Source: a virus
IMG/VR virus record: IMGVR_UViG_3300032331_003094
Span: 1-64,000 of that record
Strand: one strand, 5' to 3'
DNA: 64,000 nucleotides
The number at the start of each line of letters is the position of its first letter. Within the stretch, counting starts at the first letter, position 1. Below, one piece after another: positions 46,261-61,747 of this stretch. The position numbers were made by a program, and so were the translations under genes. The notes under the pieces were generated by a model, which was given only the letters and a program-made list of their open reading frames with translations, searched no databases and had not been told where the DNA came from.

Positions 46261-46288
46261 GGACCTGAGCATGTCCTTAAACTGCTCA
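46261..46288 (+). ncRNA. Pseudoknot motif A, copy 1
   Basis: GGAC-CTGAGCAT-GTCC-TTAAAC-TGCTCA. Confidence 0.7.
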
Positions 46289-46582
46289 ACACATAACCTA
46301 TGTGTTATCAACAATCTTAATAAGTGACAGTTATTGAGATTACAACTATCCCATTGCAATTCAACCATGACTTACTCACAGCCAGAACTTGATCGCATCG
46401 AAAGTCAAGCCACTGCTGATTACTTGGATGTAATGGCAGACTTGGCCTATGAGATGGCTAATGCATTACGTGAAGAATACGAGGATGATCACTATGAAGA
46501 AGCAGCAGGTTAACTACGATACCGTCACAGTTATTGTGGCGGTTGTTTACATACTATTCACACTACTCATCCAGGCAATCCA

Positions 46583-46939
46583 ATGGCTCTCTCAACTGAA
46601 CAACAACTCATTGCTCAAGCAATCGGCTACGAACCAATCACTGGTGAAGAAGCTGAACAACAGTTCGAACCAGAAGTTAACTACGATCCAAAAGACGGAG
46701 GTGTCCCAAAGCCTGGTAGCATCTACCAGAACAAGCGTGGGACCTACCGTTATTACTGGAAGCCAAGCGGCGGTAACTACACCGCCAAAGACAAAGTTGA
46801 ACTCGAAGGTTGGTACGACATCCCGTGCCTCGAAGACCTCGAAGAGTGGAGCTTCGACTCGTACGCGTTCACGCCAGGTGAAGACGAAGTCGAACCAGAC
46901 CATCCCGACTCTTGGCTTCGGTTGCTCTACTTGATTTGA
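46583..46939 (+). CDS. Hypothetical phage protein
   Basis: LEEWSFDS....PGEDEVEPDHPDSWLRLLYLI C-terminus. Confidence 0.65.
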   Translation: MALSTEQQLIAQAIGYEPITGEEAEQQFEPEVNYDPKDGGVPKPGSIYQNKRGTYRYYWKPSGGNYTAKDKVELEGWYDIPCLEDLEEWSFDSYAFTPGEDEVEPDHPDSWLRLLYLI

Positions 46940-47105
46940 TTAAATATCGGGGGAAGATCGGATAACTTCCGATTATGTACCAGGGATCTGACAAATAAGT
47001 ATTGTCCATCCCCCCAAACCCCCGCAACAGCCACTACCAGGAATAATCTTCTATATATAGAAGTTATTTCTTTAATTACACTTCAATCATTCACCAACTA
47101 ATCAC

Positions 47106-47357
47106 ATGACTACTGCTGAATTACCTGATGATCTTAATGACTATTACAAGGATAAAGCTAGAGATTTACCAACACGTAAACGTAATAGTGTTGATGACTT
47201 GATGCATGTATTGGACTGTGCAGTCATCGATGCCTTAAACCATGGTGGTTCTAATGAAGCAATCCATGAGGCATTCGAAGCTGTGATCAATCATCCAGAC
47301 AGCACCTGGTCAAGGGATGTCCTTAGCTATCGCATACGTCAAGTCCACTATCACTAA
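47106..47357 (+). CDS. Hypothetical protein
   Basis: 83-aa ORF after a C/A-rich leader. Confidence 0.55.
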   Translation: MTTAELPDDLNDYYKDKARDLPTRKRNSVDDLMHVLDCAVIDALNHGGSNEAIHEAFEAVINHPDSTWSRDVLSYRIRQVHYH

Positions 47358-47613
47358 CGTATACGGCAAGGTTAAGAACAGGTTGAGCATGGGATTGGTT
47401 CACATTAGAACCTTGGTCTGGTGCGGCCAGACATCCCATGCTTGATCCATCAACCTGAATGATGGAACCCAAAGTAAACGCAATCATTGACGAGGATGAT
47501 TGCACCAGTGGCCACTGGGTCTTGCAAGACTCGGTCATCGTAACATTTGTTACATGCTCATGGCCACTGCTTGACAACACTGTTAAACTAACCACGCACT
47601 CACATTCAAATCA

Positions 47614-47832
47614 ATGTCCAAACTTAATGACGCACCTAAGCCACGCATCCCTGATGCCGTGGATCAACGCAGGCTTGAAGCTATGCAATTAGTTGCAAAG
47701 ATGAAAGAGTCTGCCGATAAGCACGGCATTGGATTTGTTGGTGGATTTATTACACCAGACGGAGAGAAGTTTGTTATGACCAATATGGATGACACTGATA
47801 CCAAAGCACTCATGCCGGAGGATCTTAAATGA
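47614..47832 (+). CDS. Hypothetical protein
   Basis: 72-aa ORF. Confidence 0.55.
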   Translation: MSKLNDAPKPRIPDAVDQRRLEAMQLVAKMKESADKHGIGFVGGFITPDGEKFVMTNMDDTDTKALMPEDLK

Positions 47833-48026
47833 CTAAGAAATCTATTGTTAACTTTGATAAAACAATCTGTGGTATCAACATCACAGAACGTGGTATCAAA
47901 TCGTTTACCAAATCAATCAAGCTTGGACCGTTTCAACTAACGTTGAACGCCCGTGACTCCGGTATCCGTGGATCGATTTCGATCCCGGGCACTGGGTTGT
48001 CCAAGCGCAACATTCGACTATTCTGA
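47829..48026 (+). CDS. DUF4236-like small protein
   Basis: KSIKLGPFQLTLN..G..GSISIPGTGLS. Confidence 0.55.
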   Translation: MTKKSIVNFDKTICGINITERGIKSFTKSIKLGPFQLTLNARDSGIRGSISIPGTGLSKRNIRLF

Positions 48027-48036
48027 ACTAACTCAC

Positions 48037-48234
48037 ATGAACTCAACTGAATTCCGCAACATGATCATGGTCATGGACCAGTATGGTGGCTCGTTTGTGT
48101 CATCAATTGCACAAGCTTTGCGCTTTGCAGATCCGGTCAATCGTCAACGGTTGATCGATGCATTCCCAGATCTTGTTGCAAAGTATGGTCCTAATACCAA
48201 GTTCACACAAATCAAACAACCTGTGGAGGTTTAA
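48037..48234 (+). CDS. Hypothetical phage protein
   Basis: YGGSFVSSIAQALRFADPVNRQRLIDAFP. Confidence 0.6.
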   Translation: MNSTEFRNMIMVMDQYGGSFVSSIAQALRFADPVNRQRLIDAFPDLVAKYGPNTKFTQIKQPVEV

Positions 48235-48237
48235 CTT

Positions 48238-48498
48238 ATGTCCGTACTAGCCGTTCACGACTTTCGTATAGCAGATGACTATTGCACAGTTGAAGCAGTG
48301 GTTGAAGATGCAGTTCTACTCCATCTCCCAATGGACTATGAACCTGCTGAATTTGGCCCTGGACTTTGTACAGCAAAGTTTAGTGTGGATCCAAAAGAAT
48401 CAATCCCTGTTAATGAAGCTGACTTCTGTAGCTATCTTGATTCACTCAATCTCGATTGGCGACTGGTCGAAGCTGATAACTCCGATCTAGACAATTGA
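48238..48498 (+). CDS. Hypothetical protein
   Basis: GGAGG SD; 86 aa. Confidence 0.6.
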   Translation: MSVLAVHDFRIADDYCTVEAVVEDAVLLHLPMDYEPAEFGPGLCTAKFSVDPKESIPVNEADFCSYLDSLNLDWRLVEADNSDLDN

Positions 48499-48503
48499 TT
48501 AAC

Positions 48504-48531
48504 CGTCCTGAGCATGACGTTAAACTGCTCA
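48504..48531 (+). ncRNA. Pseudoknot motif A, copy 2
   Basis: CGTC-CTGAGCAT-GACG-TTAAAC-TGCTCA. Confidence 0.7.
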
Positions 48532-48558
48532 ACACTACTAACTCACTACGAATTTACT

Positions 48559-50385
48559 ATGCAGTTTCAGCTACCTACTAACTTGCAGATTGAGTTACTA
48601 GCTTACGATCCAACGCTGAAGAAGTTGGCTCGCACTAATAACTCAAAGACCAAATCAACTAAGTCTAAGTTTCCACTGGGTCAACCTATTGACATCATCC
48701 CACAAGATGTGTTGCGCACATCGTTAGTGCAAGATGCCATTGATGCAATCAACAGTTGCCCAGTGCCACAACGTGTACATGAATTCAAACGCATGAATGG
48801 TTTTGCAAAGACCATGACATGCGCTGTGTTGTATCACTATGAATCTTGTTGGTATGCCGCATGGCTGCCACCCAAGGGACAGGAACAGGATTATGTTTAT
48901 GGTTATAGCTTTGCATACAAAGATAACAAGACTTCAAGGAACATGGTTCCATTCAAAGTTACAACTACGGAAGATACACAGATTGTTAAGTATGGTAGAT
49001 CTGATTTTATTACATACTCACGACTTGTAACCAAGCAAAATATCATTGATGGGAACAGCGGTCACAATTGGGTTTTGCCAAGTATTACTTGGGGCAAAGG
49101 TCAAGGCATTCGTGAAGTTATTCGACGCTTTGAAGAATCACTAAAGGAAACCATCCCTGTATGGGATGATGCCCGTGGTGGTATGTTTGCCAGGCTTAAG
49201 AATTCAAACTTTGTTTCATTACTTGAACTGGAAAACATCATTGATAAAGAGTTGAAGGATACATGGAAGCCATCAGTTGATAATTTGTTTCACATCATTG
49301 ATGAGTCTGTATTGTTTCCTAGTGATTATCATTATGGTGTTTATAGAAGCTACAAATGTATTCGTCACATCATTGACAAACCATTTTTTCGTAGATGGAT
49401 TCAAACAAAGTGTGATGAAACCATAGAACGCTTGAGTGATAATGACAATCGCTCAGAGCGTTACGTTAAACAACCATGGAATCAAATTAAGCATTTGTTT
49501 CGCATGATGTTGTACATAAATAATATCTGGCCTGATTGTCCTATTGATTATTATCAAACACACATTGACAATCTATTGGCTATATATAATTTGCATTCCA
49601 ATACAGATAACACGCGTGTATCTACGTGGTTAAACAAGCATATGCCTGTTGCATCTTTCTTTACGATTGTAGAAAAAGTTGTAACAAATCCAGATAAAAG
49701 ACTTGGTACTTGTACCACAGATTCTATGACTGGACTTAATCAATACTATATTTCAGATTGGGTTGATACTGTAAACATGCTTTGTGATATATTGGCTGAC
49801 AAAGAATCTAAGAATGAAACGTTAGCGCCACCAAAACGGTGGAGACTAACTGAGTTTCATGATTACATCCAAGGTGAAGCTTGGAAGGTTAAACATGTCA
49901 ACAATGCATTACCTCAGGATTTGTTCCCTGAACCTATCAAGGTACAAGTTGAACATACAGAAAAAGTAAATGCAACGTCAACATCTGACAAAATGATTTA
50001 CAACATTAACGACAATTTAAATTATGGTAGACCAATCCTTGATCTTATAGATGGTCATTATAAAACAACACCAGTTAACTATACATTTTTCCAACCTATT
50101 GATACCCATCAACTGGCGGCATGGGGCCAGGCTGTACGCAACTGCGTTGGTAATGCATCCAACTATGCAGATGGTGTACGCAAGAAGAAACATTTCATTG
50201 TCTTAGCAATGCTTGACAACAAGCCAACGTTTACTATCCAATTGGAAGTCGACATGGGCATGATGTCCGTCAAACAGATTGTTGGCATATCAAATGCCAG
50301 GCTTACCAGTGACCAAAAAGATTCCTACACCAAAGCTTTTTCGCAAGCGTTGAAGCTTCAAGAATCTAAGCTACAATCTGCGTAG
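48559..50385 (+). CDS. PcfJ-domain protein
   Basis: C-terminal FHD...QLAAWGQAVRNCVG..Y...TIQL...KQIVG..N. Confidence 0.7.
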   Translation: MQFQLPTNLQIELLAYDPTLKKLARTNNSKTKSTKSKFPLGQPIDIIPQDVLRTSLVQDAIDAINSCPVPQRVHEFKRMNGFAKTMTCAVLYHYESCWYAAWLPPKGQEQDYVYGYSFAYKDNKTSRNMVPFKVTTTEDTQIVKYGRSDFITYSRLVTKQNIIDGNSGHNWVLPSITWGKGQGIREVIRRFEESLKETIPVWDDARGGMFARLKNSNFVSLLELENIIDKELKDTWKPSVDNLFHIIDESVLFPSDYHYGVYRSYKCIRHIIDKPFFRRWIQTKCDETIERLSDNDNRSERYVKQPWNQIKHLFRMMLYINNIWPDCPIDYYQTHIDNLLAIYNLHSNTDNTRVSTWLNKHMPVASFFTIVEKVVTNPDKRLGTCTTDSMTGLNQYYISDWVDTVNMLCDILADKESKNETLAPPKRWRLTEFHDYIQGEAWKVKHVNNALPQDLFPEPIKVQVEHTEKVNATSTSDKMIYNINDNLNYGRPILDLIDGHYKTTPVNYTFFQPIDTHQLAAWGQAVRNCVGNASNYADGVRKKKHFIVLAMLDNKPTFTIQLEVDMGMMSVKQIVGISNARLTSDQKDSYTKAFSQALKLQESKLQSA

Positions 50386-50435
50386 TCCCCACAGACTTGC
50401 CAGCCTTAGCCTCGTAACTAGGGCTGGCACCAATC

Positions 50436-50654
50436 ATGACTGACTACACTGATGAGCAACTACTTGCTATGGCCATGGCCAATCTTGGTGAGTACATTCA
50501 TGACAACTCACCGCATTACGTTTTAATGCAAAATGATCCTCGCAACGAGGATGACTACGATAGTTGGCAGTACGGAATGGAAGTATTGCCTCATGATCAC
50601 ACTTGGCAACACACATCTATTGATGTGAGTGTAAGTCCAAGTGAGCCCGAGTAG
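50436..50654 (+). CDS. Hypothetical protein
   Basis: 72-aa ORF; its stop lies inside the tRNA. Confidence 0.5.
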   Translation: MTDYTDEQLLAMAMANLGEYIHDNSPHYVLMQNDPRNEDDYDSWQYGMEVLPHDHTWQHTSIDVSVSPSEPE

Positions 50655-50720
50655 CCCAGCGGAAGAGGCAAACGACTTAAAATCGTTCCAGCGTGAGTTC
50701 GAATCTCACCTCGGGTACCA
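50645..50720 (+). tRNA. trnL: tRNA-Leu (anticodon UAA) with a short variable loop
   Basis: GCCCGAG/CTCGGGT acceptor, AACGA-CTTAAAA-TCGTT, GTGAG-TTCGAAT-CTCAC, A73, encoded CCA; 76 nt. Confidence 0.9.
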
Positions 50721-50742
50721 ATTTTAAAACACAAATCAAATC

Positions 50743-51045
50743 ATGTATTACGCTTTGCCAACCTATTGTCCAGAACATCCCGCAGATCCATTTACTCCTA
50801 AAGCAAGTGGTGCTGTAAAAACAACAAGAGAACAAAGAATGTATGTATATCGACAACGTAAGAAAGGTAAAACATACAAAGAATTAGCTAGCAAGGTTAG
50901 CCTTACTACTCAAGGAGCAATTAATGTATGTAAAAGAATAGATCGAAAAATTGAATGGTTAAAACATGCAATAAGAAATGAATACAAAGCAGCTAAAAGA
51001 TTGAACCTTAGTATATGGGAATATAGAAAAGCTTATACACAATAA
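50743..51045 (+). CDS. HTH DNA-binding protein
   Basis: GKTYKELASKVSLTTQGAINVC; AT-rich. Confidence 0.55.
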   Translation: MYYALPTYCPEHPADPFTPKASGAVKTTREQRMYVYRQRKKGKTYKELASKVSLTTQGAINVCKRIDRKIEWLKHAIRNEYKAAKRLNLSIWEYRKAYTQ

Positions 51046-51049
51046 ATAA

Positions 51050-51086
51050 CTGGGCATTGTTTACATGTAAGTCCCAGCTTTAACAA
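51050..51086 (+). ncRNA. Pseudoknot motif B
   Basis: CTGGG/CCCAG stem; loop TTGTT pairs with downstream AACAA. Confidence 0.45.
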
Positions 51087-51108
51087 CAACTAACACACAT
51101 TTAATTCA

Positions 51109-51471
51109 ATGGAAATTCTTGCTTGTTTCAAACATCTAATTCCAACTGTACATGCTTATCAAGATGATGAGCAACGTTACAACCTGGGTGCTACATGGAC
51201 TGCTGCCGATGGCTTGCAGGATTACCACAACATCGAACTTAAGTACGTTCGTAACTCAGAACGTCTTGCTCTCCAAGGTGATCCACAACCTGATGGCAGC
51301 TGGAAGTATGTAGAAGCTAATGGCACCGTTCATACCATCACGGCTGAACGCGCCAATAACTTCATGAAGACAACCAGTGACCATGCTACGCTGATGTGTC
51401 AGATGCTGGACCGCCTGCAACAAGCAGGAATCACCGGTCCAACAGTTGACACCCAAGCGTCGGCTGCTTAA
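51109..51471 (+). CDS. Hypothetical protein
   Basis: 120-aa ORF. Confidence 0.6.
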   Translation: MEILACFKHLIPTVHAYQDDEQRYNLGATWTAADGLQDYHNIELKYVRNSERLALQGDPQPDGSWKYVEANGTVHTITAERANNFMKTTSDHATLMCQMLDRLQQAGITGPTVDTQASAA

Positions 51472-51492
51472 ACTACCAACGGAATGTCTGCG

Positions 51493-51521
51493 GAGCCTGG
51501 CGCAAGCTGGGCTCTTTTCTT
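51493..51521 (+). terminator. Intrinsic terminator
   Basis: GAGCCTGGC-GCAA-GCTGGGCTC-TTTTCTT. Confidence 0.75.
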
Positions 51522-51860
51522 ATGACTAACACTGATCAAACCAATCAAGTTGACCAAGCTGTTGTGGATGAAGTTGTAAGACGGATTCCAGAACATACTT
51601 GGGATGATGTTAAAGCAACATTGATTACACACATTGTGGATTCAATGCCAAGTGACGTTATGCTTCGGCTGACTAATGATCCGGAAGGATTTGAAGAAGC
51701 TGAAAACATTTTGTATAACTACTATGAAGATCCTAAGCGTCATTGGAATTTAATCAATGATGCATTCCAATTGTTTGGTGATGAATATGTCTTAGTGCTA
51801 CTTGATTCAATGCAACTTGACAAAATTCAAAATGCAAACACTGACTCTCAATTGCCCTGA
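51522..51860 (+). CDS. Hypothetical protein
   Basis: 112-aa acidic ORF. Confidence 0.55.
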   Translation: MTNTDQTNQVDQAVVDEVVRRIPEHTWDDVKATLITHIVDSMPSDVMLRLTNDPEGFEEAENILYNYYEDPKRHWNLINDAFQLFGDEYVLVLLDSMQLDKIQNANTDSQLP

Positions 51861-52314
51861 CTGTAACAAAATCAATCCATTACTTCTTGAATCACGAATG
51901 ACAGTTCGTGGTGTAAGACGTAGGCGTTATGAATGTAAAGGGTGTCGTCATCGTTGGACTTTGTTTACCAAAGAAAACGAGGGGCGCCCTTACAAACCAA
52001 ATGGATGGGATGTCTACAAGGGAAGGATGGATGAATGGCGTTCATTATCAAGAACGCAAGCTAAAGCAATAATATTATCTAATAAACCACAACGTGAACT
52101 TGCTGAAGATTATGGTATCTCACGTCAAGCAATTTCATTAATTCAAACCGGTAGGATCTATAAAGATATTTATGAAGAAATACATCCACCGCGCACAGGT
52201 CCAATGATTTATTGTGCCAGTTGTACACACTGGAGTCGTGATCGTTGTGGTTTTGAATTTCCAGATGCTGGTGATACCTTTGCCACTGAGTGTTCTGTTT
52301 ACCAATCTAAATAA
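51832..52314 (+). CDS. NrdR-like zinc ribbon plus HTH protein
   Basis: CPDC...ESR....RRRRYECKGCRHRW; QRELAEDYGISRQAIS; C-terminal Cys cluster. Confidence 0.7.
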   Translation: MQTLTLNCPDCNKINPLLLESRMTVRGVRRRRYECKGCRHRWTLFTKENEGRPYKPNGWDVYKGRMDEWRSLSRTQAKAIILSNKPQRELAEDYGISRQAISLIQTGRIYKDIYEEIHPPRTGPMIYCASCTHWSRDRCGFEFPDAGDTFATECSVYQSK

Positions 52315-52316
52315 CA

Positions 52317-52619
52317 ATGAATTATGAACGGCTTGCTGTGATGAAACGCGTTAACAAAACGTTTCGTGAAACGGAACTATTGAATGAACCACCTGTCGTT
52401 CATCCCTTAATTGAAAAAGTTGCACGCGCTATTAGCGATTGGCAATCTGAACGAGACTGGTTGTTTCATACCGACCAGGCTATTCGTGTTATCGAAACCA
52501 TTGCCGAACAACTTGGCAAAGAAGGTTATGATATGCCACAAGATTATTTGCGTCGTGCAATTTGGAAAGAAGAACCCAAGCCCAGGCAATCAGGCATAAA
52601 GGGTGGGGCCACACCGTGA
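52317..52619 (+). CDS. Hypothetical protein
   Basis: 100-aa ORF. Confidence 0.5.
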   Translation: MNYERLAVMKRVNKTFRETELLNEPPVVHPLIEKVARAISDWQSERDWLFHTDQAIRVIETIAEQLGKEGYDMPQDYLRRAIWKEEPKPRQSGIKGGATP

Positions 52620-52754
52620 TCAGTGGCATGGCCCTTCAGTTACCAATCAGAGGAGACAGCAAAAACTCTGATTCCCTTGGATAATGAGGCTGACGCTGTC
52701 CTTCTTCGCCTCATTAATACTGTAATACAAATAGCTATTCCCGTACGGGATTAT

Positions 52755-52778
52755 GGACCTGAGATGTCCTAAAACTCA
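52755..52778 (+). ncRNA. Pseudoknot motif A, copy 3
   Basis: GGAC-CTGAGAT-GTCC-TAAAA-CTCA. Confidence 0.65.
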
Positions 52779-52808
52779 TTCATTAATTTAACTTATCATT
52801 CAACTCAA

Positions 52809-53591: not shown

Positions 53592-53629
53592 ATTAAATGC
53601 AGTAGCATTTGACCGTCTTCCACAAGATT

Positions 53630-53863: not shown

Positions 53864-55664
53864 ATCTTGGCTTACATTCGACATCGAGACCGATGGACTG
53901 TATGATCAAGCCACCAAAATTCATTGCATTGTTATTTATGATGTCAACCGCCAACTCACTTCTAGCTACGGGCCTGATCGCATTGGGGATGCTATTGAGC
54001 ATCTGCGTAGTGCTGATGTTCTTATTGGCCACAACATTCTCTTTTACGACATCCCTGTAATTCAAAAATTAACGCAAGCAATTTTTAATGCACGTGTTAT
54101 TGACACGCTCATTTGTACCAGATTGATCTGGCCCAAAGAATTACTCTATGAACTTGACACTGAACAATATCCGCAGGTTCCATCGAAGCTACGTGGTTCT
54201 GCCGGACTCAAAGCATGGGGCTATCGACTGGCTGACAACAAAATTGAATTCAAAGACTTCTCAGAATATTCCCAAGAAATGTTGGACTACTGCATCCAAG
54301 ATGTGGAAGTCACCAAAAAATTATGGGAACACATTGTTAAACAAAACTATGCACAGCCGTCGCTTAAGCTGGAGCATGACTTTGCTTTTGCAATTAATCG
54401 GCAAATTAGATCAGGTGTTCCTTTTGATTTGGATGCAGCTCTTGATCTGGTGGATGATCTCCGAGCAAAACAAACAGAACTTGAAACACAATTAAAAGAA
54501 TTGTTCCCACCAATTAAACAAGAGGAATGGTTTACACCCAAAGTAAATAATACTAAGCGTGGCTATGTCAAGGGTGTGCCATTTCGCAAGGTAATTGTCG
54601 AAGAGTTTAATCCTGGATCCAGGCAACAAATTGCTGATCGTTTACGCAACAAGTATGGATGGACTCCAGAAAAAACAACTGAAAAAGGCAATCCAGTTCT
54701 TGATGATGATGTACTTGAAAAGTTACCGTATCCCGAAGCCAAAACGTTAGCAGAGTATATGCTAATTAAGAAACGTCTTGGACAAATTGCTGAAGGAAAC
54801 AATGCTTGGACAAAGCTTGTTAATAATAATGATCTCCGTATGCACGGTGACGTTGTTACAAATGGTTGCATTACAGGCCGTTGCGCACATCGAAACCCCA
54901 ACATGGGTCAAGTGCCCGCAGGATACTCGCCCTATGGAAAAGAATGCCGCTCGTTGTTCCATGCTCCTAACGGCTGGGACCTTATTGGTATTGACGCTAA
55001 AGCATTGGAGCTTCGTTGCCTCGCTGGATATCTTGCTTACTGGGATAATGGGGAATATGCTTCTCTTGTTATTAATCCTGAAGTAGATATTCATACCTAT
55101 AACCAACAACAGTTTGGTGTGGAAACCAGGGACATCAGCAAACGTTTGTTGTATGGAATGTTGTATGGCTGTGGTGCAGTTAAGGCTGGAACAATTATTG
55201 ATCCTAATGAAAAGGATGAATATAAACTTAAAACCTTGGGGCGTAATGCTATTGATGGTTTTATGAAAGGTGTGCCAGCACTTAAGAAATTAAAACAACA
55301 AATTGATGAAGCAATTAGTGAACGCAATTACCTCATTGGTTTAGATCGACGTGCATTGCATTGCCGTTCTGCATTTAAAGGATTGAATGTTTTGTTGCAA
55401 TCAGCTGGTGCCATCATCATGAAGCAAGTCGTTGTAACCATTCATAACAACATTGAACAAAACCTTGGTTTGGTTTACGGCAAGGATTGGGAACAGCTTT
55501 TGATGGTTCATGATGAAATAGAAATTGCATGTTATCCCGCATACACTGAGGCGGTTAAAGAACAAGCTATTATGGCTTTCCCCCAAGCTCAACAAGCTTT
55601 TAACTTCCGTTGTGAAATTGAAGGTGATGCAAAAGTTGGTTTTAATTGGTATGAGGTACACTAA
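53832..55664 (+). CDS. polA: Family A (T7-like) DNA polymerase with 3'-5' exonuclease
   Basis: FDIETDG, GHNILFYD, YCIQDV; DAKALELR (motif A), KRLLYGMLYG (B), VHDE (C); start approximate. Confidence 0.95.
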   Translation: MFTMKPNSANESWLTFDIETDGLYDQATKIHCIVIYDVNRQLTSSYGPDRIGDAIEHLRSADVLIGHNILFYDIPVIQKLTQAIFNARVIDTLICTRLIWPKELLYELDTEQYPQVPSKLRGSAGLKAWGYRLADNKIEFKDFSEYSQEMLDYCIQDVEVTKKLWEHIVKQNYAQPSLKLEHDFAFAINRQIRSGVPFDLDAALDLVDDLRAKQTELETQLKELFPPIKQEEWFTPKVNNTKRGYVKGVPFRKVIVEEFNPGSRQQIADRLRNKYGWTPEKTTEKGNPVLDDDVLEKLPYPEAKTLAEYMLIKKRLGQIAEGNNAWTKLVNNNDLRMHGDVVTNGCITGRCAHRNPNMGQVPAGYSPYGKECRSLFHAPNGWDLIGIDAKALELRCLAGYLAYWDNGEYASLVINPEVDIHTYNQQQFGVETRDISKRLLYGMLYGCGAVKAGTIIDPNEKDEYKLKTLGRNAIDGFMKGVPALKKLKQQIDEAISERNYLIGLDRRALHCRSAFKGLNVLLQSAGAIIMKQVVVTIHNNIEQNLGLVYGKDWEQLLMVHDEIEIACYPAYTEAVKEQAIMAFPQAQQAFNFRCEIEGDAKVGFNWYEVH

Positions 55665-56171
55665 ATGGATTTTTTAAAATTAAAACCAATACCAAGCAAA
55701 AATGAATTGCAAGTTTTATTAAGATATGAAACAGAAACCGGGTTTTTATTTTGGAAAAAAACTAATAAAAGAGCCGGCAGTATGCCTAAATGTACTGATC
55801 TTAAACATTGTCAATACAGAAGAATAACGGTGTCTCGCGTTGGATATGTAGAACACAGAATTATTTATCAATTGCATTATGGTGACTTAACAACGCAAGA
55901 TGCAATTGATCATATTGATAGAGATAAAACAAATAACAAAATTGAAAACCTTAGAAAAGCTGATGTTTATTTAAACAATCAAAATCAAGGAGATAGAAAA
56001 AACAATACATCTGGATACAAAGGTGTTTCATGGTCAAAACAACGTCAACAATGGCGTGCCACAATAACCGTAAAGAATAAACATAAACACATTGGATTTT
56101 TTATTTGTAAAGAAAAAGCTTATGCGGCGTACTTGGATGCTCGCGTCAAGTACTATGGATTTGCTTGTTGA
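55665..56171 (+). CDS. Free-standing HNH-AP2 homing endonuclease
   Basis: HRII...IDHIDRDKTNNKIENLR; NTSGYKGVSW....WRATI...HIG. Confidence 0.9.
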   Translation: MDFLKLKPIPSKNELQVLLRYETETGFLFWKKTNKRAGSMPKCTDLKHCQYRRITVSRVGYVEHRIIYQLHYGDLTTQDAIDHIDRDKTNNKIENLRKADVYLNNQNQGDRKNNTSGYKGVSWSKQRQQWRATITVKNKHKHIGFFICKEKAYAAYLDARVKYYGFAC

Positions 56172-56173
56172 CT

Positions 56174-56200
56174 CGTCCCAAGTAAGACGTTAAACTGCTT
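56174..56200 (+). ncRNA. Pseudoknot motif A, copy 4
   Basis: CGTC-CCAAGTAA-GACG-TTAAAC-TGCTT. Confidence 0.65.
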
Positions 56201-56220
56201 TCCACCAACCATCGGAACCA

Positions 56221-57027
56221 ATGAACTTTGTGACGGTGTGTGCCCAGGCGACTGAGGTACCACGTGAGGTTTATACCTCAGCTACTTCCACGGCATTACG
56301 CTGTAATCTTTTGTTACCTCCTGTAGGTAATAAAGCACCAACCCCAATTGAAATCAATGTGTATGGCAAAAGTACAGAACGTTTTCAACGCACCACTAAA
56401 GGAGAACTTCTGTACATTCACGGCGCCAAGCTACGTTACGACCTGGAATCCAGGACGCATTCGTTACATGGAGGAATTATTACTCCGGTTACGGAAGCAT
56501 TCCCAATCTTTAATACAGTCATCCTTGCAGGACGTTGCGTTAAAGACATCGACAAAGATGATGCTCGCGCCTTTAAAACCATGGCGAATGGGTTGATGAG
56601 TTGCAGCCAAACACTCTCAGTTAATACTGGGCGTAATCAAGCTGACTTGTTTAACTTCTACGCACTTAATTCCGTAGAAGATAAATTAAATAATGCCGAA
56701 CTTTTGGTTAACTTTACCAGGAAGGGTACTGGCCTTACCTTGCAAGGTCGGTTAATTACTGATGCCTGGGTTGATAAGGAGACCAAGGAAAAACGGACAT
56801 CAACCAAGATTCAGTTGACATCTATGACCTTGGCACCCAAGGCATCAACCCCTGCAGCACCAGAGATCAAGCCACACACAACTGTTGCAAATCATGAAGT
56901 TGCTGGGTTGTGGGGCGGTAAGACCGCCGATGATGTAGCAGAACCCTGGGGGTTAAACGTAGGTAGCAACCTGCCTGAACTCCCAGGTCAATTTGATCAC
57001 AACGATTTAACCAACGCACCTTTTTAA
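56221..57027 (+). CDS. ssb: Single-stranded DNA-binding protein with tandem OB folds
   Basis: NTVILAGR...RKGTGLTLQGRLITDAWVDKET; C-terminal PF. Confidence 0.8.
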   Translation: MNFVTVCAQATEVPREVYTSATSTALRCNLLLPPVGNKAPTPIEINVYGKSTERFQRTTKGELLYIHGAKLRYDLESRTHSLHGGIITPVTEAFPIFNTVILAGRCVKDIDKDDARAFKTMANGLMSCSQTLSVNTGRNQADLFNFYALNSVEDKLNNAELLVNFTRKGTGLTLQGRLITDAWVDKETKEKRTSTKIQLTSMTLAPKASTPAAPEIKPHTTVANHEVAGLWGGKTADDVAEPWGLNVGSNLPELPGQFDHNDLTNAPF

Positions 57028-57031
57028 AATC

Positions 57032-57274
57032 ATGACACTCACAACAAAAATTATTGATCCAACGCTTACGTTGGAGGATGCAATTGCCTATGAGTTTTTC
57101 ATGGACAATTTGCCAAACATAATAGGTGATTCACTGGGGAATCTTGAAGCTACGGAGGAAGAAATTGATCAAATAGTTGATGGCATTAGTTTGTTGGCTT
57201 TAATGTCTTACAGGATTGCACAACGTTTTGAATGTGCACGCGAAGCAATGAAAATAGTTAATGAAAAAAATTAA
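57032..57274 (+). CDS. Hypothetical protein
   Basis: 80-aa ORF. Confidence 0.5.
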   Translation: MTLTTKIIDPTLTLEDAIAYEFFMDNLPNIIGDSLGNLEATEEEIDQIVDGISLLALMSYRIAQRFECAREAMKIVNEKN

Positions 57275-57280
57275 TTAGTA

Positions 57281-57306
57281 ATGGACCTGGGATGTCCATA
57301 AACTCA
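57281..57306 (+). ncRNA. Pseudoknot motif A, copy 5
   Basis: ATGGAC-CTGGGAT-GTCCAT-AAA-CTCA. Confidence 0.6.
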
Positions 57307-57322
57307 TCCGTACTTAACCTAA

Positions 57323-58396
57323 ATGATCATGAGCGACACACTCATCGACTCTGTTACTGACACCCCACCTTCTCTGAGCACCCTTAAGAAAATGACCGTT
57401 AAGAAAACCTCCGCACTTGCAACACGTGGACTTGATTCATTCCGGATGTTTCAATCCAAAGAATTCGTCTCTGGATACCAAAACCTTGTCACAATCCAAC
57501 CACTCAACAAATCAAAAACACGAGGTTGGTTCGTACGGAAGTCAGACCTGGATACTTGCGGATGGAGCGCAAGTGAAGATCAGTTTGCTAAAGGTTCAGT
57601 TATCTGGAACTACAAGCAGACTTTTGGTATGGCTCCCAACACTTCAATTGAAGAGGGGCTTAATTTCACTGAGCCTCGTTTGCAAATCCTTTTACGTTCT
57701 CCCCTCATGGTTGAGGAAACCACAGGGATGAGGCAGACGATTGGCACCTTTGAAAATCCCGATGTCAAAGAACTTTGGGAAGCTGACAAGATTGCATCTG
57801 ATCTTGCCAACAGCAAAGGTGAAATGTACAAACGCAAGTACAGCGTGCGTACCAAGTACCTGGTCTACATTTTGACCCAGGACAACAAACGTGCCCACAA
57901 GATCCCCATGGTTCTAACTTTGAAAGGATTGAACGGTACGGATGTTTCCGAAAAGGTTAAGATGTATGAAAAGGAAATGTCCAAGTGCTTGAGCAAAGCA
58001 CTGGATGCTGAAGTTCCTTTGTCCTTTAATGAAAAGTTCTACGCCACTACCGTTTTTGCTCCGATACTTGCCAATGAAATGCGCGGCGCCAACAACGTTG
58101 AGATCTGCGCAATTGAATCTTTTGACATCCCTGATTACAACGACCAAGAATCTGCGATTGAATCCCTGAGTCGCTTGTCGATTCCTGATGAAGATCGTGA
58201 ATCAACTTGGAAGTTCCAGGACTTGTTTGGAGATTACATCAACCAGCATGCTCGGCAAGATGCTGAGAAGCTTGGTGGTGCATACGGTATCAAGTCCGGT
58301 GTAGAAATTCTTCCTGCATCCAGGGGAGTTTCGGAACTTGAAGTGAAGGCATTGCCTGCACGCGATGAACTGACCGGAGAGGACACTTCGTTCTGA
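57323..58396 (+). CDS. DUF5895-like protein (possible ssDNA-binding or recombination factor)
   Basis: PRLQILLRSPL...KYLVYILTQDNKRAHKIPMVLTLKG; replication cluster. Confidence 0.55.
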   Translation: MIMSDTLIDSVTDTPPSLSTLKKMTVKKTSALATRGLDSFRMFQSKEFVSGYQNLVTIQPLNKSKTRGWFVRKSDLDTCGWSASEDQFAKGSVIWNYKQTFGMAPNTSIEEGLNFTEPRLQILLRSPLMVEETTGMRQTIGTFENPDVKELWEADKIASDLANSKGEMYKRKYSVRTKYLVYILTQDNKRAHKIPMVLTLKGLNGTDVSEKVKMYEKEMSKCLSKALDAEVPLSFNEKFYATTVFAPILANEMRGANNVEICAIESFDIPDYNDQESAIESLSRLSIPDEDRESTWKFQDLFGDYINQHARQDAEKLGGAYGIKSGVEILPASRGVSELEVKALPARDELTGEDTSF

Positions 58397-58417
58397 TCCG
58401 TTTAGTACGTTAAGATT

Positions 58418-58442
58418 AGGCCCTGCATCAGCGGGGCCTTTT
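58418..58442 (+). terminator. Intrinsic terminator
   Basis: AGGCCCTGC-ATCA-GCGGGGCCT-TTT. Confidence 0.75.
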
Positions 58443-58492
58443 GTTTGGCATCATCGTGTTTTATTGGATTGTCTTTATTCTCCAGGGTTTGC

Positions 58493-58753
58493 CTATTCTT
58501 TTTTTGGTAACTCTGGGTTTCCTAATTGCTCGCCTTCTACTACCACATTGTTAAAACAAAACATGTCTTGAACTAAACCACGAATGATTCCCTGACGTTG
58601 TGTTGCAATGGTCGCCAACAAAGTTGCCATCTCTTGCAACTGACTAACTGAATTACATTCTTTAATGGATCGATTTATTTTCTCTTGCCAAAACTTATCA
58701 TCGAGCGTTGGTTCGATTTGAAACTTGGTAAGTGGAACGTATTTGATTTCCAT
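58493..58753 (-). CDS. Possible second, divergent NblA-like protein
   Basis: PTLDDKFWQEKINRSIKECNSVSQLQEMATLL two-helix pattern; own TAAAAT. Confidence 0.4.
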   Translation of the reverse strand: MEIKYVPLTKFQIEPTLDDKFWQEKINRSIKECNSVSQLQEMATLLATIATQRQGIIRGLVQDMFCFNNVVVEGEQLGNPELPKKE

Positions 58754-58831
58754 TTGTTTAAAACCGTTAACTTATTTTACTGTTACAGTCAAATCTTAAC
58801 TTGAATTTCACATTGTATTCACAAACACACT

Positions 58832-59032
58832 ATGGACAATGCTGAGAAGTCTGCGCTAAAAACAGGTGGCATCTTTGGTGCCATCACCGCCCTTGCAGTT
58901 GCTCCCTTTGCTACGCCTGTCATTTGGGCAGCTGTGGCATATGGAACCTACAGGGTTGCACGCAACGCCTATCGCAATGCTAAACTCGATGAGGCCCCCA
59001 GGGGCAAGCCGGATGACAACCTCTTTATCTGA
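58832..59032 (+). CDS. Small membrane protein
   Basis: Hydrophobic hairpin. Confidence 0.55.
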   Translation: MDNAEKSALKTGGIFGAITALAVAPFATPVIWAAVAYGTYRVARNAYRNAKLDEAPRGKPDDNLFI

Positions 59033-59068
59033 GGTTAAACTTCCTCAACTCAACTTAAAACAAAATCA

Positions 59069-60016
59069 ATGTCGAACCAAACGCAAACCAGTCTCACTAC
59101 AACGCAAGCTTCTATTTATTCTCGGACTAACATCCGCCGCGCCTTCTCGGACTTTGACGACACTGATGTCGCCGGTATTTATCTCCGAGATGATTCTTGC
59201 GTCGTGGCTTACCATCATGGTGGTGAACTTAGTTACCCACGGGAAGTAATCAAGACTGCTTTCCAGAACTATACTTATCGTCTCAAAGATTTCTTTTCGT
59301 ATCTTGGTCCCAATTATCGTGGCCCTAGTGTATGGCATAACAATGCTTACATTATGTTTAAGGGCTGGCACTACAACCACCAACTCGGACACCTGACTTC
59401 CAATGCCGTACTCCAAAAAGAATGGGCAGACAAGTTTATCCACCTCACAGACGCCAACAAACTCACAGCTTTACTGCAATCGGATCAAACCGATATTGGG
59501 CATCTGGTGGCGCCGGACGGGATTCGGATTCCGAACGGGCCCGTTGACTTGGAGTCTGACTTGGGGGATGAGACCACAAGCGTATCGCCCGTCAATACTG
59601 AACCTTATTGCTCATGTGGGTCCTTTCAGCGTCAGCTTCTTAATGTTTCAAGTTTTCAGGAGGAGATCCAAGGATTCAAACCCTGGTGCATCCACCTGAC
59701 TTGGTTTCATAAGTATCGGGAACTACTGGTTAAACGCGCCCAGGTGCGTAATGAAGCGCGGGGTGGTGCACCTATGAACTGTGTGGCATGGTGGTATGCA
59801 CCGCCATCTGATCACAGCAGTGACGGACGGTTTGTTTTGTTGTATACCAAGTATGGATCCATGGCTCCTCTTAGCCATTGGCGTACGTACAAACCTCAAG
59901 AAACCTTTACCCAACACAATGCATGGGATTTGTTTTTCAATATGATGGAAGCTGGTTACGTTCCGTTTCCTGGTAGTTCACTTCCACAACTTGCTAATGC
60001 AACCAAAAAGAAATGA
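59069..60016 (+). CDS. SWIM zinc-finger protein
   Basis: CSCGSF...WCIH. Confidence 0.65.
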   Translation: MSNQTQTSLTTTQASIYSRTNIRRAFSDFDDTDVAGIYLRDDSCVVAYHHGGELSYPREVIKTAFQNYTYRLKDFFSYLGPNYRGPSVWHNNAYIMFKGWHYNHQLGHLTSNAVLQKEWADKFIHLTDANKLTALLQSDQTDIGHLVAPDGIRIPNGPVDLESDLGDETTSVSPVNTEPYCSCGSFQRQLLNVSSFQEEIQGFKPWCIHLTWFHKYRELLVKRAQVRNEARGGAPMNCVAWWYAPPSDHSSDGRFVLLYTKYGSMAPLSHWRTYKPQETFTQHNAWDLFFNMMEAGYVPFPGSSLPQLANATKKK

Positions 60017-60384
60017 CTAAGACACAACTATTTGTTATCGATCCTCACCCTGCCATTCCACCTTCTGATCAACTAAAAGAATGGGAAGACAAATGGTTTG
60101 ATGAGGCAGAACATCCTGATGTCCTGTTGATCCAAGCATTTCAAGCAGGCGCCGACCAGGAGCTGGAGGCGTGTTGTGAGTGGCTGGTTAGCGAAGGATG
60201 GTTCAAATACGAACACAAGGTTGTGGAAGATCTCCGCGCTGCCCGCCGCCCCACGCCGCCAAGTTTGAAGGAGCAGGCGCTGACTGCGCTTTACGCTATT
60301 GCAACAGGTGCTAATGACACTCGTGAGCAACACCAAGACTTCGACACCATCCGCCGCGCACTGGAGGCATTGCCCAATGACTGA
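60013..60384 (+). CDS. Hypothetical cyanophage protein
   Basis: GADQELEACCEWL...LRAARRP..PSLKEQAL...IRRALEALP. Confidence 0.7.
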   Translation: MTKTQLFVIDPHPAIPPSDQLKEWEDKWFDEAEHPDVLLIQAFQAGADQELEACCEWLVSEGWFKYEHKVVEDLRAARRPTPPSLKEQALTALYAIATGANDTREQHQDFDTIRRALEALPND

Positions 60385-60631
60385 CTTCCGCGCCCTGTGC
60401 GAAGAGCTTAACGGGCTACTGGAATACATTTCTGATATAAGTCCCCATCTTTGTGAAGACGAAATTAACAACCTGACAAACAGCGCACGCGCCGCCCTGG
60501 CTGAGCAGCCGGTAGGGCCCACGGATGAAGAGCTGTGGGAGGCATGGGGGTGTTTCGAGCACGAGCCTTTCAGCAAGGGGGACACCATTATGCAGTTGCG
60601 TGAGTTCCTTGCCCGCTGGGGGCAGTCATGA
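60377..60631 (+). CDS. Hypothetical cyanophage protein
   Basis: MTDFRALCEEL...ARAALAEQPVGPTDEEL...LARWG. Confidence 0.65.
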   Translation: MTDFRALCEELNGLLEYISDISPHLCEDEINNLTNSARAALAEQPVGPTDEELWEAWGCFEHEPFSKGDTIMQLREFLARWGQS

Positions 60632-60822
60632 CTGATCTCTCCCCCGCCGCGCAGGCAGTGTTGGATGCTGCTGCTGACGTTTATTGGGACTGGTCCGACA
60701 TGTCGCCTGCGTCTTCCTCGACAATTGCCGCCGCTGTTCTGCGAGCTGTTGTACACGGTGATTACATTACCTCCGAGGCAATCCTCGCCATCGCCGCCGA
60801 GCTGGAGGAACTCGATGACTGA
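60628..60822 (+). CDS. LSPAAQAV-family small protein, copy 1
   Basis: MTDLSPAAQAVLDA...LAIAAELE. Confidence 0.65.
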   Translation: MTDLSPAAQAVLDAAADVYWDWSDMSPASSSTIAAAVLRAVVHGDYITSEAILAIAAELEELDD

Positions 60823-60976
60823 CTCCCCCGCTTATGTAAATATACTTGTGCCTCCTGCCTACGCGGGGTGTTGGCAACTCACTGATACCTACCGCATTTC
60901 AGTAACTAAAAAACCCAACGCCTTTCACCGTTTTATGACAACTTTGTTACTTGGCTGGGAGTGGGTTGATGGCTGA
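60815..60976 (+). CDS. Small hypothetical protein
   Basis: MTDSPAY...KKPNAFHRFMTTLLLGWEW. Confidence 0.55.
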   Translation: MTDSPAYVNILVPPAYAGCWQLTDTYRISVTKKPNAFHRFMTTLLLGWEWVDG

Positions 60977-61169
60977 CCTAACTCCACGCCAGCAACTAAT
61001 TGAAGAACTCAACGAAAAACTTAGTGACGCTTTTCAGAGTGACTTTGAGCACGGTGTCAAAGCTCTTAACATTGCTGCTGCTGAAGAATTCCATCAAAAG
61101 TATCCAGCTTTAGTTGAAGTACTTGAGTGGATTGCATTTCTTTTTTACGAGGAACTTCCAATTGACTAA
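60969..61169 (+). CDS. Small hypothetical protein
   Basis: Probable start MADLTPRQ. Confidence 0.55.
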   Translation: MADLTPRQQLIEELNEKLSDAFQSDFEHGVKALNIAAAEEFHQKYPALVEVLEWIAFLFYEELPID

Positions 61170-61380
61170 CCTCTCCCCCGCCGCGCAGGCGGTGCGTGAC
61201 GCATTTGACATTGCCAGTATTGATACTGCGATCTTTGGTGACCCAGACCGGCGCCTTGCTGCCGCTCTGCGAGCTGCTGCGGATCAACTTAGTTTTCAAC
61301 TTCCATTTGAAGATTCACGCTGTGTAGCAGTTCTTGATCTTCTCGCCATCGCCGCTGAGCTAGAGGGTGCTAATGACTAA
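61162..61380 (+). CDS. LSPAAQAV-family small protein, copy 2
   Basis: TTG start, TNLSPAAQAVRDA...LAIAAELE. Confidence 0.6.
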   Translation: MTNLSPAAQAVRDAFDIASIDTAIFGDPDRRLAAALRAAADQLSFQLPFEDSRCVAVLDLLAIAAELEGAND

Positions 61381-61576
61381 AGTACTAATTCCATTTGACA
61401 AAATGACTATTACTTACACAGAAGAACAAGACGATGGTGCATGCATCACATTTAATTGGGATGAGACAGACCCTGATCTTGCTTATTGGACATCCATGTC
61501 AGAAGATGAACAGCGTAGTTTTGTGTTGACTTCTTTACGAGATAGTCTTAAAGAACAACTTGATGAAGCGTCCTAG
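61373..61576 (+). CDS. Hypothetical protein
   Basis: Probable start MTKVLIP. Confidence 0.55.
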   Translation: MTKVLIPFDKMTITYTEEQDDGACITFNWDETDPDLAYWTSMSEDEQRSFVLTSLRDSLKEQLDEAS

Positions 61577-61594
61577 GAACGACGTTAAACTTCC
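61569..61594 (+). ncRNA. Pseudoknot motif A, copy 6
   Basis: CGTC-CTAGGAAC-GACG-TTAAAC-TTCC. Confidence 0.65.
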
Positions 61595-61747
61595 CATCCA
61601 ACACAAAACAAACTCATGTTTCATTTCATTGCATCTGTCGTTGTTCCTCAACTTACCAACACATTAAGGGACCTTGCCCTGGCAGCATGCGCAGCATTGC
61701 TGACATGGGCTATCAACAAAGTTCAATCCCAATTCATCTGAACGCAA

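Follow-up and report, generated by a model that had tools for sequence, protein, structure and literature searches.

Introduction

The coremin motif (xrRNA_C) of beny-, cucumo- and other eukaryotic RNA viruses, printed as GUCCGAAGACGUUAAACUAC, stalls Xrn1 and blocks scanning ribosomes, as do its Watson–Crick pseudoknot variants; both require the L1 nucleotide, Xrn1 resistance of coremin requires a second hairpin, hp2, and longer loops were tolerated in published tests (PMC6546385, PMC10520033, PMC10321173). The published model, in which the L1 base is essential, is an H-type pseudoknot of the BWYV kind, and coremin variants selected in the laboratory pair the loop with the bases that follow UUAAAC (PMC10321173). 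Among phage RNAs, GP20-b (RF03003), which lies upstream of phage GP20 genes, is a candidate cis-regulatory RNA, and the same source counts 8,495 unnamed candidates (PMC10690425).

Here we describe a pseudoknot of 26–28 bases in an S-EIVl-like cyanophage. The window that we analysed is 64,000 nucleotides long (positions 1 to 64,000 of IMG/VR record IMGVR_UViG_3300032331_003094), and a first-pass annotation had called in it six copies of the knot in front of early and replication genes. The likeness to coremin is close: a short hairpin with a GUC/GAC stem, a first loop base C, a penultimate loop base A and an identical GACGUUAAACU. Indeed, GUCC and GACGUUAAACU of the phage consensus, CGUCCUGAGCAUGACGUUAAACUGCUCA, are common to coremin; our literature search found no paper connecting coremin with phages.

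Results

All six copies are present on the + strand where they had been called. A covariance model built from them returns 38.8–50.8 bits for the copies (E 3e-12 to 1e-8), the best other match in the window reaches 12.5 bits (E 0.57), and a covariance-model search of the rest of the 82-kb genome gave no further full copy. Copy 1 (46261–46288, +; 50.8 bits) combines S1 GGAC/GTCC (46261–64 with 46273–76), L1 C, S2 TGAGCA/TGCTCA (46266–71 with 46283–88) and L3 TTAAAC. It does not lie directly ahead of a gene and is abutted by a 7-bp hairpin, ACACATA-ACC-TATGTGT (46289–46305, +; RNAfold); no other window copy has a coremin-type hp2.

The genes downstream of the other five copies are those named in the first-pass annotation, and all five copies match the model on the + strand. 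Copy 2 (48504–48531; S1 CGTC/GACG, S2 TGAGCA/TGCTCA) is separated by a 27-nt leader (48532–48558) from the ATG at 48559 of a PcfJ-like gene, and the orthologous site occurs in 17 loci. Copy 3 (52755–52781; S1 GGAC/GTCC), with a 7-nt loop, precedes the GP88 gene (leader 52782–52808, ATG 52809). Copy 4 (56174–56200; S1 CGTC/GACG, S2 AAGTA/TGCTT) begins 2 nt past the stop of an HNH gene and leads through a 20-nt leader (56201–56220) to the ssb ATG at 56221; its orthologous site is found in 72 loci, and also in phage S-EIVl itself. Copy 5 (57283–57309; S1 GGAC/GTCC), again with a 7-nt loop, stands before a DUF5895 gene (leader 57310–57322, ATG 57323). Copy 6 (61569–61594; S1 CGTC/GACG, S2 GGAA/TTCC) is followed by the leader 61595–61615 and the ATG at 61616 of a conserved 41-aa ORF, itself followed by a Gp157-like gene (61687–62460), and has orthologous sites in 74 loci. 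A degenerate seventh site (59020–59068, +; hairpin part 59020–59041; 10.2 bits) keeps CCTC/GAGG, TTAAAC and a 28-nt G-free leader to an ATG at 59069; stem 2 is not evident there, and in relatives the orthologues of this gene have the leader and no knot.

With the six-copy model, a further 254 copies were recovered from 80 related contigs of S-EIVl-like phages, all of them (254/254) on the gene (sense) strand. Across 120 distinct relatives S1 is paired in 100% and S2 in 85%, with double, compensatory changes in six of the ten pairs and covariation of S2 at four pairs. None of 500 shuffles reached the observed pairing values, and slid controls paired just 18–52% of cells. The loop also fits its own tail better than permuted tails, both in the S-EIVl-like family (5.14 vs 3.83 ± 0.07) and in an independent IMG/VR set (4.73 vs 3.97 ± 0.06); in bacterial-genome matches, 16 of 17 distinct stems, diverse in sequence, form the S1 pairs that the search left unconstrained. 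G-U pairs outnumber A-C (70 vs 17). Because compensatory change affects both stems, selection on a compact H-type pseudoknot as an RNA structure is well supported, which much strengthens what had been proposed from the window copies. We infer that the knot acts in RNA and that S1 and S2 form simultaneously.

Conservation is focused on S1, L1 and the A-rich loop, while the inner pairs of S2 covary freely. Two features called invariant from the six copies, the C that follows stem 1 and the AAAC linker, are invariant in the 120 distinct relatives too. In the same set the 7–8-nt loop begins with C in 120/120, has a penultimate A in 120/120 and ends in U or A in 108/120; its second base is U or C and never G. 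The pairings first drawn for stem 2 of the copies with 7-nt loops, UGAG/CUCA in copy 3 and UGGG/CUCA in copy 5, gave way to another register: relatives support pairing of G-R-G in the loop with Y-Y-C at tail positions 4–6, plus an invariant A-U pair. By this register test, stem 2 of copy 3 consists of A52764–T52776 plus GAG (52761–63) with TTC (52779–81), and that of copy 5 of A57292–T57304 plus GGG (57289–91) with TCC (57307–09), all on the + strand. The folded element would comprise a 4-bp S1, one invariant C, a 4–6-bp S2 and a loop, invariantly (U/A)AAAC, whose likely course is along stem 1.

Set against coremin, this architecture agrees in some parts and departs in others. S1, at 4 bp, falls within the 3–5 bp of coremin hp1, and its commonest form, CGUC/GACG, contains the coremin GUC/GAC. 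The hp1 loop of coremin is YGAD (4 nt) or YGNNAD (6 nt), which the phage loops fit only in part, being 7–8 nt long with U or C instead of G at the second base. Of the 10-nt coremin spacer GUUAAACUAC the phages share G-UUAAAC-U, with AAACU invariant and the final bases variable because they are part of stem 2, which in the phage knot is made of 4–6 canonical pairs. The canonical pairing of loop with post-spacer bases and the fixed L1 of the Watson–Crick coremin variant (xrRNA_WCC, PMC10321173) are both found in the phage knot. As to setting, hp2 is missing from five of the six window copies, and the phage knot lies between genes of DNA phages, whereas coremin lies in 3′ UTRs of RNA viruses.

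The knot motif is absent from Rfam. GP20-b apart, Rfam 15 families (preQ1, pistol and others) gave no match at the six sites at E<=10. The best Rfam match was GP20-b itself, to copy 1 only, its 11.5 bits falling short of the gathering score of 36.2; neither copy 2 nor the Staphylococcus and Lactobacillus loci matched it, a gathering-threshold search of the whole window gave no GP20-b match, and we rejected membership. There is nonetheless a likeness, in that both are phage intergenic elements, the knots of Firmicutes phages precede scaffold genes, and the 5′ half of the GP20-b consensus is knot-like (short stem, stem-2 arm, stem return, UAAAA, stem-2 return); GP20-b differs in its 62 positions and additional 3′ elements. 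The earlier view that the knot belongs to no named family thus holds for Rfam, but the literature contains a close named relative in the coremin of plant viruses.

Two further pseudoknots invite comparison. The luteoviral −1 frameshift knots (BWYV, PLRV; PMC10321173) are also compact and H-type with a one-base L1 C, and like the phage knot they have an A-rich loop able to occupy the minor groove of stem 1. A −1 programmed frameshift signal, in which a knot lies 5–9 nt past a slippery site that joins two overlapping ORFs in a fixed frame relation, was rejected for the phage knot on the layout of the ORFs: the upstream ORF stops 5 nt before it, the downstream gene has its own ATG, and the flanking ORFs bear no frame relation since the distance from knot to ATG varies between 24 and 29 nt among orthologues. 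The T4 gene 32 operator (PMC10690425), for which there is no Rfam model, was compared in architecture: it places a pseudoknot and an unstructured leader before ssb, as at copy 4; the phage knot differs in preceding many genes other than ssb, as well as tRNAs in unrelated phages.

Placement follows a fixed cassette of upstream stop, at least 5 nt, knot, a G-poor unstructured leader of about 20 nt, and ATG. The knot lies 24–29 nt from the start in 209 of 281 copies, a distance that stays fixed even where the upstream gap is at least 20 nt. On the other side, 5 nt or more separate the end of the upstream stop from S1. The spacing has a sharp mode of exactly 5 nt, which holds 37–82% of copies across four independent site classes and recurs among the bacterial-genome matches; GP88 sites have no upstream gene nearby. 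Ribosomes unwind mRNA at about +11, so a stop at this spacing would let a terminating ribosome just escape opening the knot. The spacers had been described as G-poor, C/A-rich and lacking a Shine–Dalgarno (SD) sequence. Their G content is indeed 7% vs 22% overall and the leaders after copies 2–6 fold to 0.0 kcal/mol (RNAfold), but the lack of an SD extends to four of the five gene-proximal copies, the leader of copy 4, otherwise a typical G-poor, C/A-rich and unstructured example, carrying a weak GGA at −8. A similar C/A-rich leader of about 25 nt serves many knot-less genes of the source phage, which indicates that the knot is not needed for initiation. No U-tract follows the knot at any of the six window copies.

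The knot recurs in hundreds of other phages. Beyond the S-EIVl-like phages, its core stands ahead of scaffold genes in phages of Staphylococcus, Streptococcus, Lactobacillus and Geobacillus and ahead of tRNAs in those of Nostoc and Arthrobacter, and bacterial genomes from many phyla carry it as well. The core, often with an identical stem 2, recurs in phages that have no gene content in common. Knots lie 3–4 nt ahead of tRNAs, in Arthrobacter phage Molivia right after ssb; in phages outside the S-EIVl-like family the knot also lies 55–70 nt before genes with ordinary SDs, or directly before tRNAs. These contexts (scaffold or capsid genes, tRNAs) fit the start of an abundant RNA unit. U-rich tracts trail the knot in several Firmicutes and other genomes, an hp2-type second hairpin is present in some GP88-site relatives and some unrelated phages, and Vibrio phages have a well-formed copy. 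A BLAST match in Pseudomonas phage Psa21 was set aside as chance, being inside a CDS and without AAAC.

Discussion

We favour, at a little under an even chance, the reading that the knot is a self-contained barrier to 5′-to-3′ enzymes at the 5′ edge of the downstream message. A 5′-to-3′ exonuclease block was among the roles first proposed, and it is the one that has gained support, by analogy, from a motif near-identical to the Xrn1-resistant coremin RNA. The knot would be a cis-acting RNA, transcribed within early and replication mRNAs between the upstream stop and the short leader of the PcfJ-like, GP88, ssb and DUF5895 genes and of the small ORF with its Gp157-like partner. Enzymes travelling 5′ to 3′ along the RNA would halt there, candidates being RNase J or another 5′ exonuclease, RNase E that tracks from a 5′ end, or stray ribosomes. 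Such a halt would let the downstream cistron outlast the upstream RNA and retain a free leader for ribosome loading.

Several observations weigh against such a barrier. The hp2 on which coremin depends is replaced by the unstructured leader in five of six window copies; Xrn1 is, to our knowledge, absent from bacteria, in which RNase J and RNase E are candidates for the enzyme stopped; and the well-formed knot in Vibrio phages occurs in hosts that, as far as we know, lack RNase J. A knot 3 nt before a tRNA fits a 3′-protective role equally well, since cleavage by RNase P at the tRNA would leave the upstream RNA with the knot as its 3′ terminus.

Such 3′ roles, whether as a block to 3′ exonucleases or as part of a terminator of the upstream message, draw on the exact 5-nt stop spacing in the four site classes, on the Molivia knot and its like close before tRNAs, and on the trailing U-rich tracts; we nevertheless consider a 3′-end element improbable, as in the S-EIVl-like family a knot with a long spacer tracks the downstream start and not the upstream stop, GP88 sites have no nearby upstream gene and the window copies have no U-tract. 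That constant distance to the ATG, which is kept despite a long upstream gap, and the G-poor, unstructured and mostly SD-less leaders would be expected of an initiation element of the downstream cistron, be it an enhancer, the boundary of a standby site or an insulator that shields the SD-less leader from upstream sequence and ribosomes. We regard this as unlikely, if worth weighing: the same leader of about 25 nt drives knot-less genes, including the 59069 orthologues, which also took support from the SD-independent enhancer proposed earlier, and elsewhere the knot lies far upstream of SD genes or directly before tRNAs. An operator for a trans-acting protein, in the manner of the T4 gene 32 or RegA translational regulons and perhaps bound by the phage SSB, would account for a knot and unstructured leader before ssb in 72 of 81 loci and for other targets that are replication or recombination genes. 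It is distinctly improbable, and the protein regulon proposed earlier lost ground, because in unrelated phages the core stands before scaffold genes and before tRNAs, and it also occurs in bacterial genomes of many phyla; a core spread over phages without shared genes calls for a universal partner or for none. We rejected its narrower form, an ssb-specific operator, as only one of the six copies precedes ssb.

The remaining explanations are fainter. An intergenic position at the starts of RNA units, including just before tRNAs, and several invariant nucleotides would suit a processing signal, either a tiny self-cleaving ribozyme or a site for a host endonuclease (RNase P, E or III); this is very improbable, for we know of no natural self-cleaving class as small as 26–28 nt and no Rfam ribozyme matched. 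Little credence goes to a DNA-level signal, namely a recombination site or a promoter with TAAACT as its −10 box, despite the fit of TAAACT to TAnnnT and the TTGACT-17-TAAACT of copy 4. A duplex-DNA site has no need of two interleaved helices that covary, and the excess of G-U over A-C pairs, the single strand orientation and the sharp 5-nt stop limit all speak against it. A sigma-70 promoter was rejected: there is no conserved −35, and the weak upstream signal (<=0.48 bits per position) comes from the upstream stop codon. TAGACT, which stands upstream of some copies and was weighed as a −10 box, reads instead as conserved (L/V)-D-stop gene ends. A search for a T7-type RNA polymerase (PF00940) gave no match in the genome or in the control genomes and is therefore uninformative. 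Least probable of all is a small ligand-sensing riboswitch of the preQ1-I kind, which the compact H-type fold and A-rich loop recall: 91-base searches returned no riboswitch family even at E<=10, leaving the ligand-sensing role once proposed without support, several copies per genome precede unrelated genes and tRNAs, and an expression platform overlapping an SD or terminator is absent.

A broader form of the barrier reading, to which we hold more tentatively, is that the knot is a prokaryotic counterpart of viral exoribonuclease-resistant RNAs, with which phages of many bacterial phyla may stop 5′-to-3′ decay enzymes or ribosomes and so set the relative abundance of messages and tRNAs in polycistronic transcripts. 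The core shared with coremin would then be either an ancient viral RNA module or one minimal physical solution that arose twice.

Because the element is tiny, modular and defined by its sequence, it could be put to use in engineered bacteria to stabilise or insulate mRNAs. The barrier hypothesis is directly testable because there are cultured carriers, namely Synechococcus phage S-EIVl, Staphylococcus phietaviruses and Arthrobacter phage Molivia. If true, it would make this the first RNA knot described in DNA phages and bacteria that resists exoribonucleases or helicases, would link phage biology to a well-studied plant-virus element via a 15-base core, and would account for the tuning of expression by phages within long operons, from ssb to scaffold and capsid genes and tRNAs.

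Six pseudoknot copies in the early module

The record holding the window is 82,212 bp long with direct terminal repeats, and among cultured phages it is closest to Synechococcus phage S-EIVl, whose DUF5895 gene is 81% identical at the DNA level. Structural genes occupy the minus strand from about 5 to 43 kb; beyond about 43 kb the plus strand carries an early/replication module, which contains all six copies of the compact H-type pseudoknot (copies 1–6 at 46261-46288, 48504-48531, 52755-52781, 56174-56200, 57283-57309 and 61569-61594). The six sites described in the first-pass annotation all read so in the sequence: R1, a covariance model built from their alignment (A1) and encoding stem 1 only, recovered exactly these six in the window at 38.8–50.8 bits, with a runner-up at 12.5 bits (E 0.57), and gave zero matches on the other 18 kb of the genome. 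Pfam bore out the downstream genes named earlier, PcfJ, GP88, SSB, DUF5895 (copies 2–5 respectively) and Gp157 (beyond a small ORF after copy 6), and identified a family-A DNA polymerase and an HNH endonuclease shortly before copy 4.

This HNH-AP2 homing-type endonuclease gene (55665-56171, plus strand) lies between the DNA polymerase gene and copy 4, its stop only 2 nt from stem 1, the tightest gap seen; S-EIVl has a small ORF at that position instead. A 41-aa ORF beginning MF(E/H) (61616-61741, plus strand), directly after copy 6 and before the Gp157-like gene, is kept in 74 of 81 related loci and belongs to no known family. The structural module holds a group I intron (Rfam RF00028, 88 bits; 26124-26367, minus strand), and the early module a tRNA gene (57 bits; 50645-50717, plus strand) that lacks a preceding knot, whereas tRNAs in Nostoc phage NMeng1 and Arthrobacter phage Molivia have one.

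Covariation supports an RNA structure

A DUF5895 protein search yielded 80 related IMG/VR loci (1.39 Mb), in which R1 found 254 matches at E<0.01, all on the gene-sense strand. We counted pairs in 120 distinct best R1 matches with the pseudoknot written out explicitly. All stem 1 cells were paired (100%), the outer pair occurring as CG, GC, UA and AU and the third as UA or AU; stem 2 was paired in 85%, and four of its pairs showed double changes. Overall pairing was 91.3% versus 80.3 ± 0.5 in shuffles, and double-change cells numbered 140 versus 51 ± 13; 0 of 500 shuffles reached the observed values of either, and sliding the 3′ partners lowered pairing to 18–52%. A separate pattern scan found 281 instances (166 distinct), and no instance with these stems on the opposite strand; the loop formed 5.14 contiguous pairs with its own tail versus 3.83 ± 0.07 with permuted tails. 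The excess of G-U pairs over A-C mismatches (70 versus 17) places the structure on the sense strand, and hence in RNA.

Compensatory change, earlier claimed for both stems, was strong in both, but the stem-2 register given for copies 3 and 5 is not supported, breaking each time the loop changes among relatives. For this 7-nt-loop subtype, 17 distinct relatives favour pairing of loop G-R-G with Y-Y-C at tail positions 4–6, with GC-to-AU double changes at two pairs. Invariant features are the stem 1 G and C, the C after stem 1, the A-U pair closing stem 2 and AAAC-U, so that the C and AAAC singled out in the window hold in relatives too. These sequence comparisons support interpretation of the element as an RNA pseudoknot.

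Placement between stop codon and leader

In 209 of 281 copies the AAAC lies 24–29 nt from the next ORF's ATG, and the intervening spacer is poor in G (7% versus 22% overall) and folds at about 0 kcal/mol, versus −2.1 for background 24-mers. Orthologous sites precede the 39-41-aa ORF before the Gp157-like gene (74 loci), ssb (72), GP88 (58), DUF5895 (44) and the PcfJ-like gene (17), and stem 1 sequence switches among orthologous copies of one site. Upstream, exactly 5 nt separate the end of the preceding ORF's stop from stem 1 in 37–82% of copies across four independent site classes, and hardly ever fewer; copies in unrelated bacterial genomes have an identical sharp lower bound of 5 nt. The ribosome unwinds mRNA at about +11 from the P site, so stem 1 would sit just beyond the helicase site of a terminating ribosome, and upstream translation would never have to open the knot. 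Where the upstream gap is ≥20 nt the knot remains beside the downstream start; it is part of the downstream unit. Its flanks are nearly devoid of sequence information; a conserved −35 box was rejected, the sole upstream signal, T-(G/A)-(A/G) at −8 to −6, being the stop codon.

Many early genes without a knot carry an equal leader (about 25 nt, C/A-rich, G-poor), as do the knotless orthologues of the 59069 gene in 50+ relatives. Knot or none, early genes in 43400-62000 (plus strand; for example 45014-45043, 47076-47105 and 59041-59068) generally have leaders that lack an SD, are poor in G and abound in CAACTCAA-like repeats. Since knotless genes share it, the initiation module is the leader rather than the knot; the SD-less, CAACTCAA-rich leader looks like the phage family's general initiation signal, and a standard leader length combined with tight packing accounts for the constant knot-to-ATG distance.

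In relatives, three different upstream genes ending 7–37 nt before knots finish in (L/V)-D-stop, written TAGACT(G/A)A; this common ending may be a coincidence, a C-terminal motif shared by the proteins, or a component of the cassette. At 52736-52747 and at relatives' GP88 sites, a small conserved hairpin, TCCC-G(A/T)(A/T)C-GGGA, stands 4-5 nt upstream of the knot.

Distribution in unrelated phages

An exact-pattern scan of IMG/VR, fixing only stem 1, CU and UUAAACU, found at least 114 stretches, many from unrelated contigs. All five stem-2 pairs, not demanded by the pattern, form in 51 of 64 distinct loop/tail combinations, and loops pair better with their own tails (4.73 versus 3.97 ± 0.06 when permuted). 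Among cultured phages, searched by BLAST and then inspected, knots precede scaffold genes in Staphylococcus phietaviruses (83 records), Streptococcus phage Javan271, Lactobacillus phage phiEF-1.1 and thermophilic phage D6E, and lie 3-4 nt before tRNAs in NMeng1 and in Molivia, there directly after ssb. Well-formed knots also occur in Mycobacterium phage Labelle, Paracoccus phage ParMal1, Bacillus phage Edson, Microcystis phage Mwe-JY13 and Vibrio phage D456; T4-like cyanophage S-H35 has one with a G-free leader, and S-EIVl one ahead of its ssDNA-binding protein gene. Bacterial genomes from many phyla yielded 30 stretches matching a 21-base pattern (chance expectation <1), with stem 1 in at least seven different complementary sequences.

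One of these bacterial stretches, in an Oscillatoriaceae MAG (DVDU01000262.1; locus L217, about 208-260), is a CRISPR spacer between GTTTCAATCCCTGAAAGGGATTCGGGTAAATTTC-type repeats, in which a GGCC-UUCG-GGCC hairpin comes after the knot sequence; it is a protospacer acquired from a knot-bearing cyanophage. IMG/VR GVMAG-S-1091232-186 (locus L150, 4619-4800) carries three tandem knots at about 75 nt spacing, two of them each followed by a terminator-like hairpin and U-run.

Resemblance to known RNAs and proposed function

The first-pass annotation could not assign the element to a named family, and for Rfam this holds: Rfam 15 gave nothing at gathering threshold at the six sites and nothing at E ≤10 over 16 kb. 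A 91-base search matched GP20-b (RF03003) weakly at copy 1 alone (11.5 bits versus a gathering score of 36.2), with no match at copy 2 and no GP20-b match at the Staphylococcus and Lactobacillus loci; even so, the GP20-b consensus resembles this small knot in its 5′ half. Javan271 and D6E (loci L235 and L236), although distant Firmicutes phages, have in common a GGGGCTTATGCAA stretch 30-60 nt after the knot and before the scaffold-gene SD, which may be a piece of a larger GP20-type leader.

Coremin, a plant-virus Xrn1-resistant RNA with the motif GUCCGAAGACGUUAAACUAC, stalls Xrn1 and scanning ribosomes (PMC10520033); by definition it has a 3-5-bp hairpin whose loop reads YGAD or YGNNAD, then a conserved spacer of 10 nt, and it requires a second hairpin (PMC6546385). 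Watson-Crick variants selected in the lab fold into a canonical BWYV-like pseudoknot in which the L1 base (after stem 1) is not changeable, and they stimulate −1 frameshifting even when the second hairpin is absent (PMC10321173). GUCC and GACGUUAAACU are common to coremin and the phage consensus, which agrees in hairpin, L1 C, spacer start and Watson-Crick stem 2 but lies outside the loop consensus, and five of the six window copies are missing the second hairpin, which copy 1 has (46289-46305). The GP88-site knot of many relatives has a covarying hairpin (ATAAGC/GCTTAT or ATTAGT/ACTAAT) on its 3′ side, for a coremin-like two-hairpin layout. Our literature search found no paper tying coremin to phages or printing the knot sequence in a phage context. 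By analogy, we regard the element as probably coremin-like in its action rather than as an established coremin.

The best-supported reading, which we consider plausible if slightly doubtful, is that the knot acts as a self-contained barrier marking the 5′ boundary of the downstream RNA unit, which would stop 5′-to-3′ exonucleolysis or end-tracking endonucleases and would never be traversed by upstream ribosomes. The coremin likeness, the 5-nt rule, anchoring to the downstream unit, the variety of contexts and conservation focused on stem 1, L1 and the A-rich loop are all consistent with such a barrier; the general absence of a second hairpin in the window and the copy in a Vibrio phage weaken the case, and the tRNA-adjacent copies fit a 3′-protection role equally well. 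Binding by a shared phage protein is unlikely because the carriers' gene contents are unrelated. The knot is missing from Rfam and, within the literature searched, from publications; as a barrier it would benefit products made in quantity, such as SSB, scaffold proteins and tRNAs.
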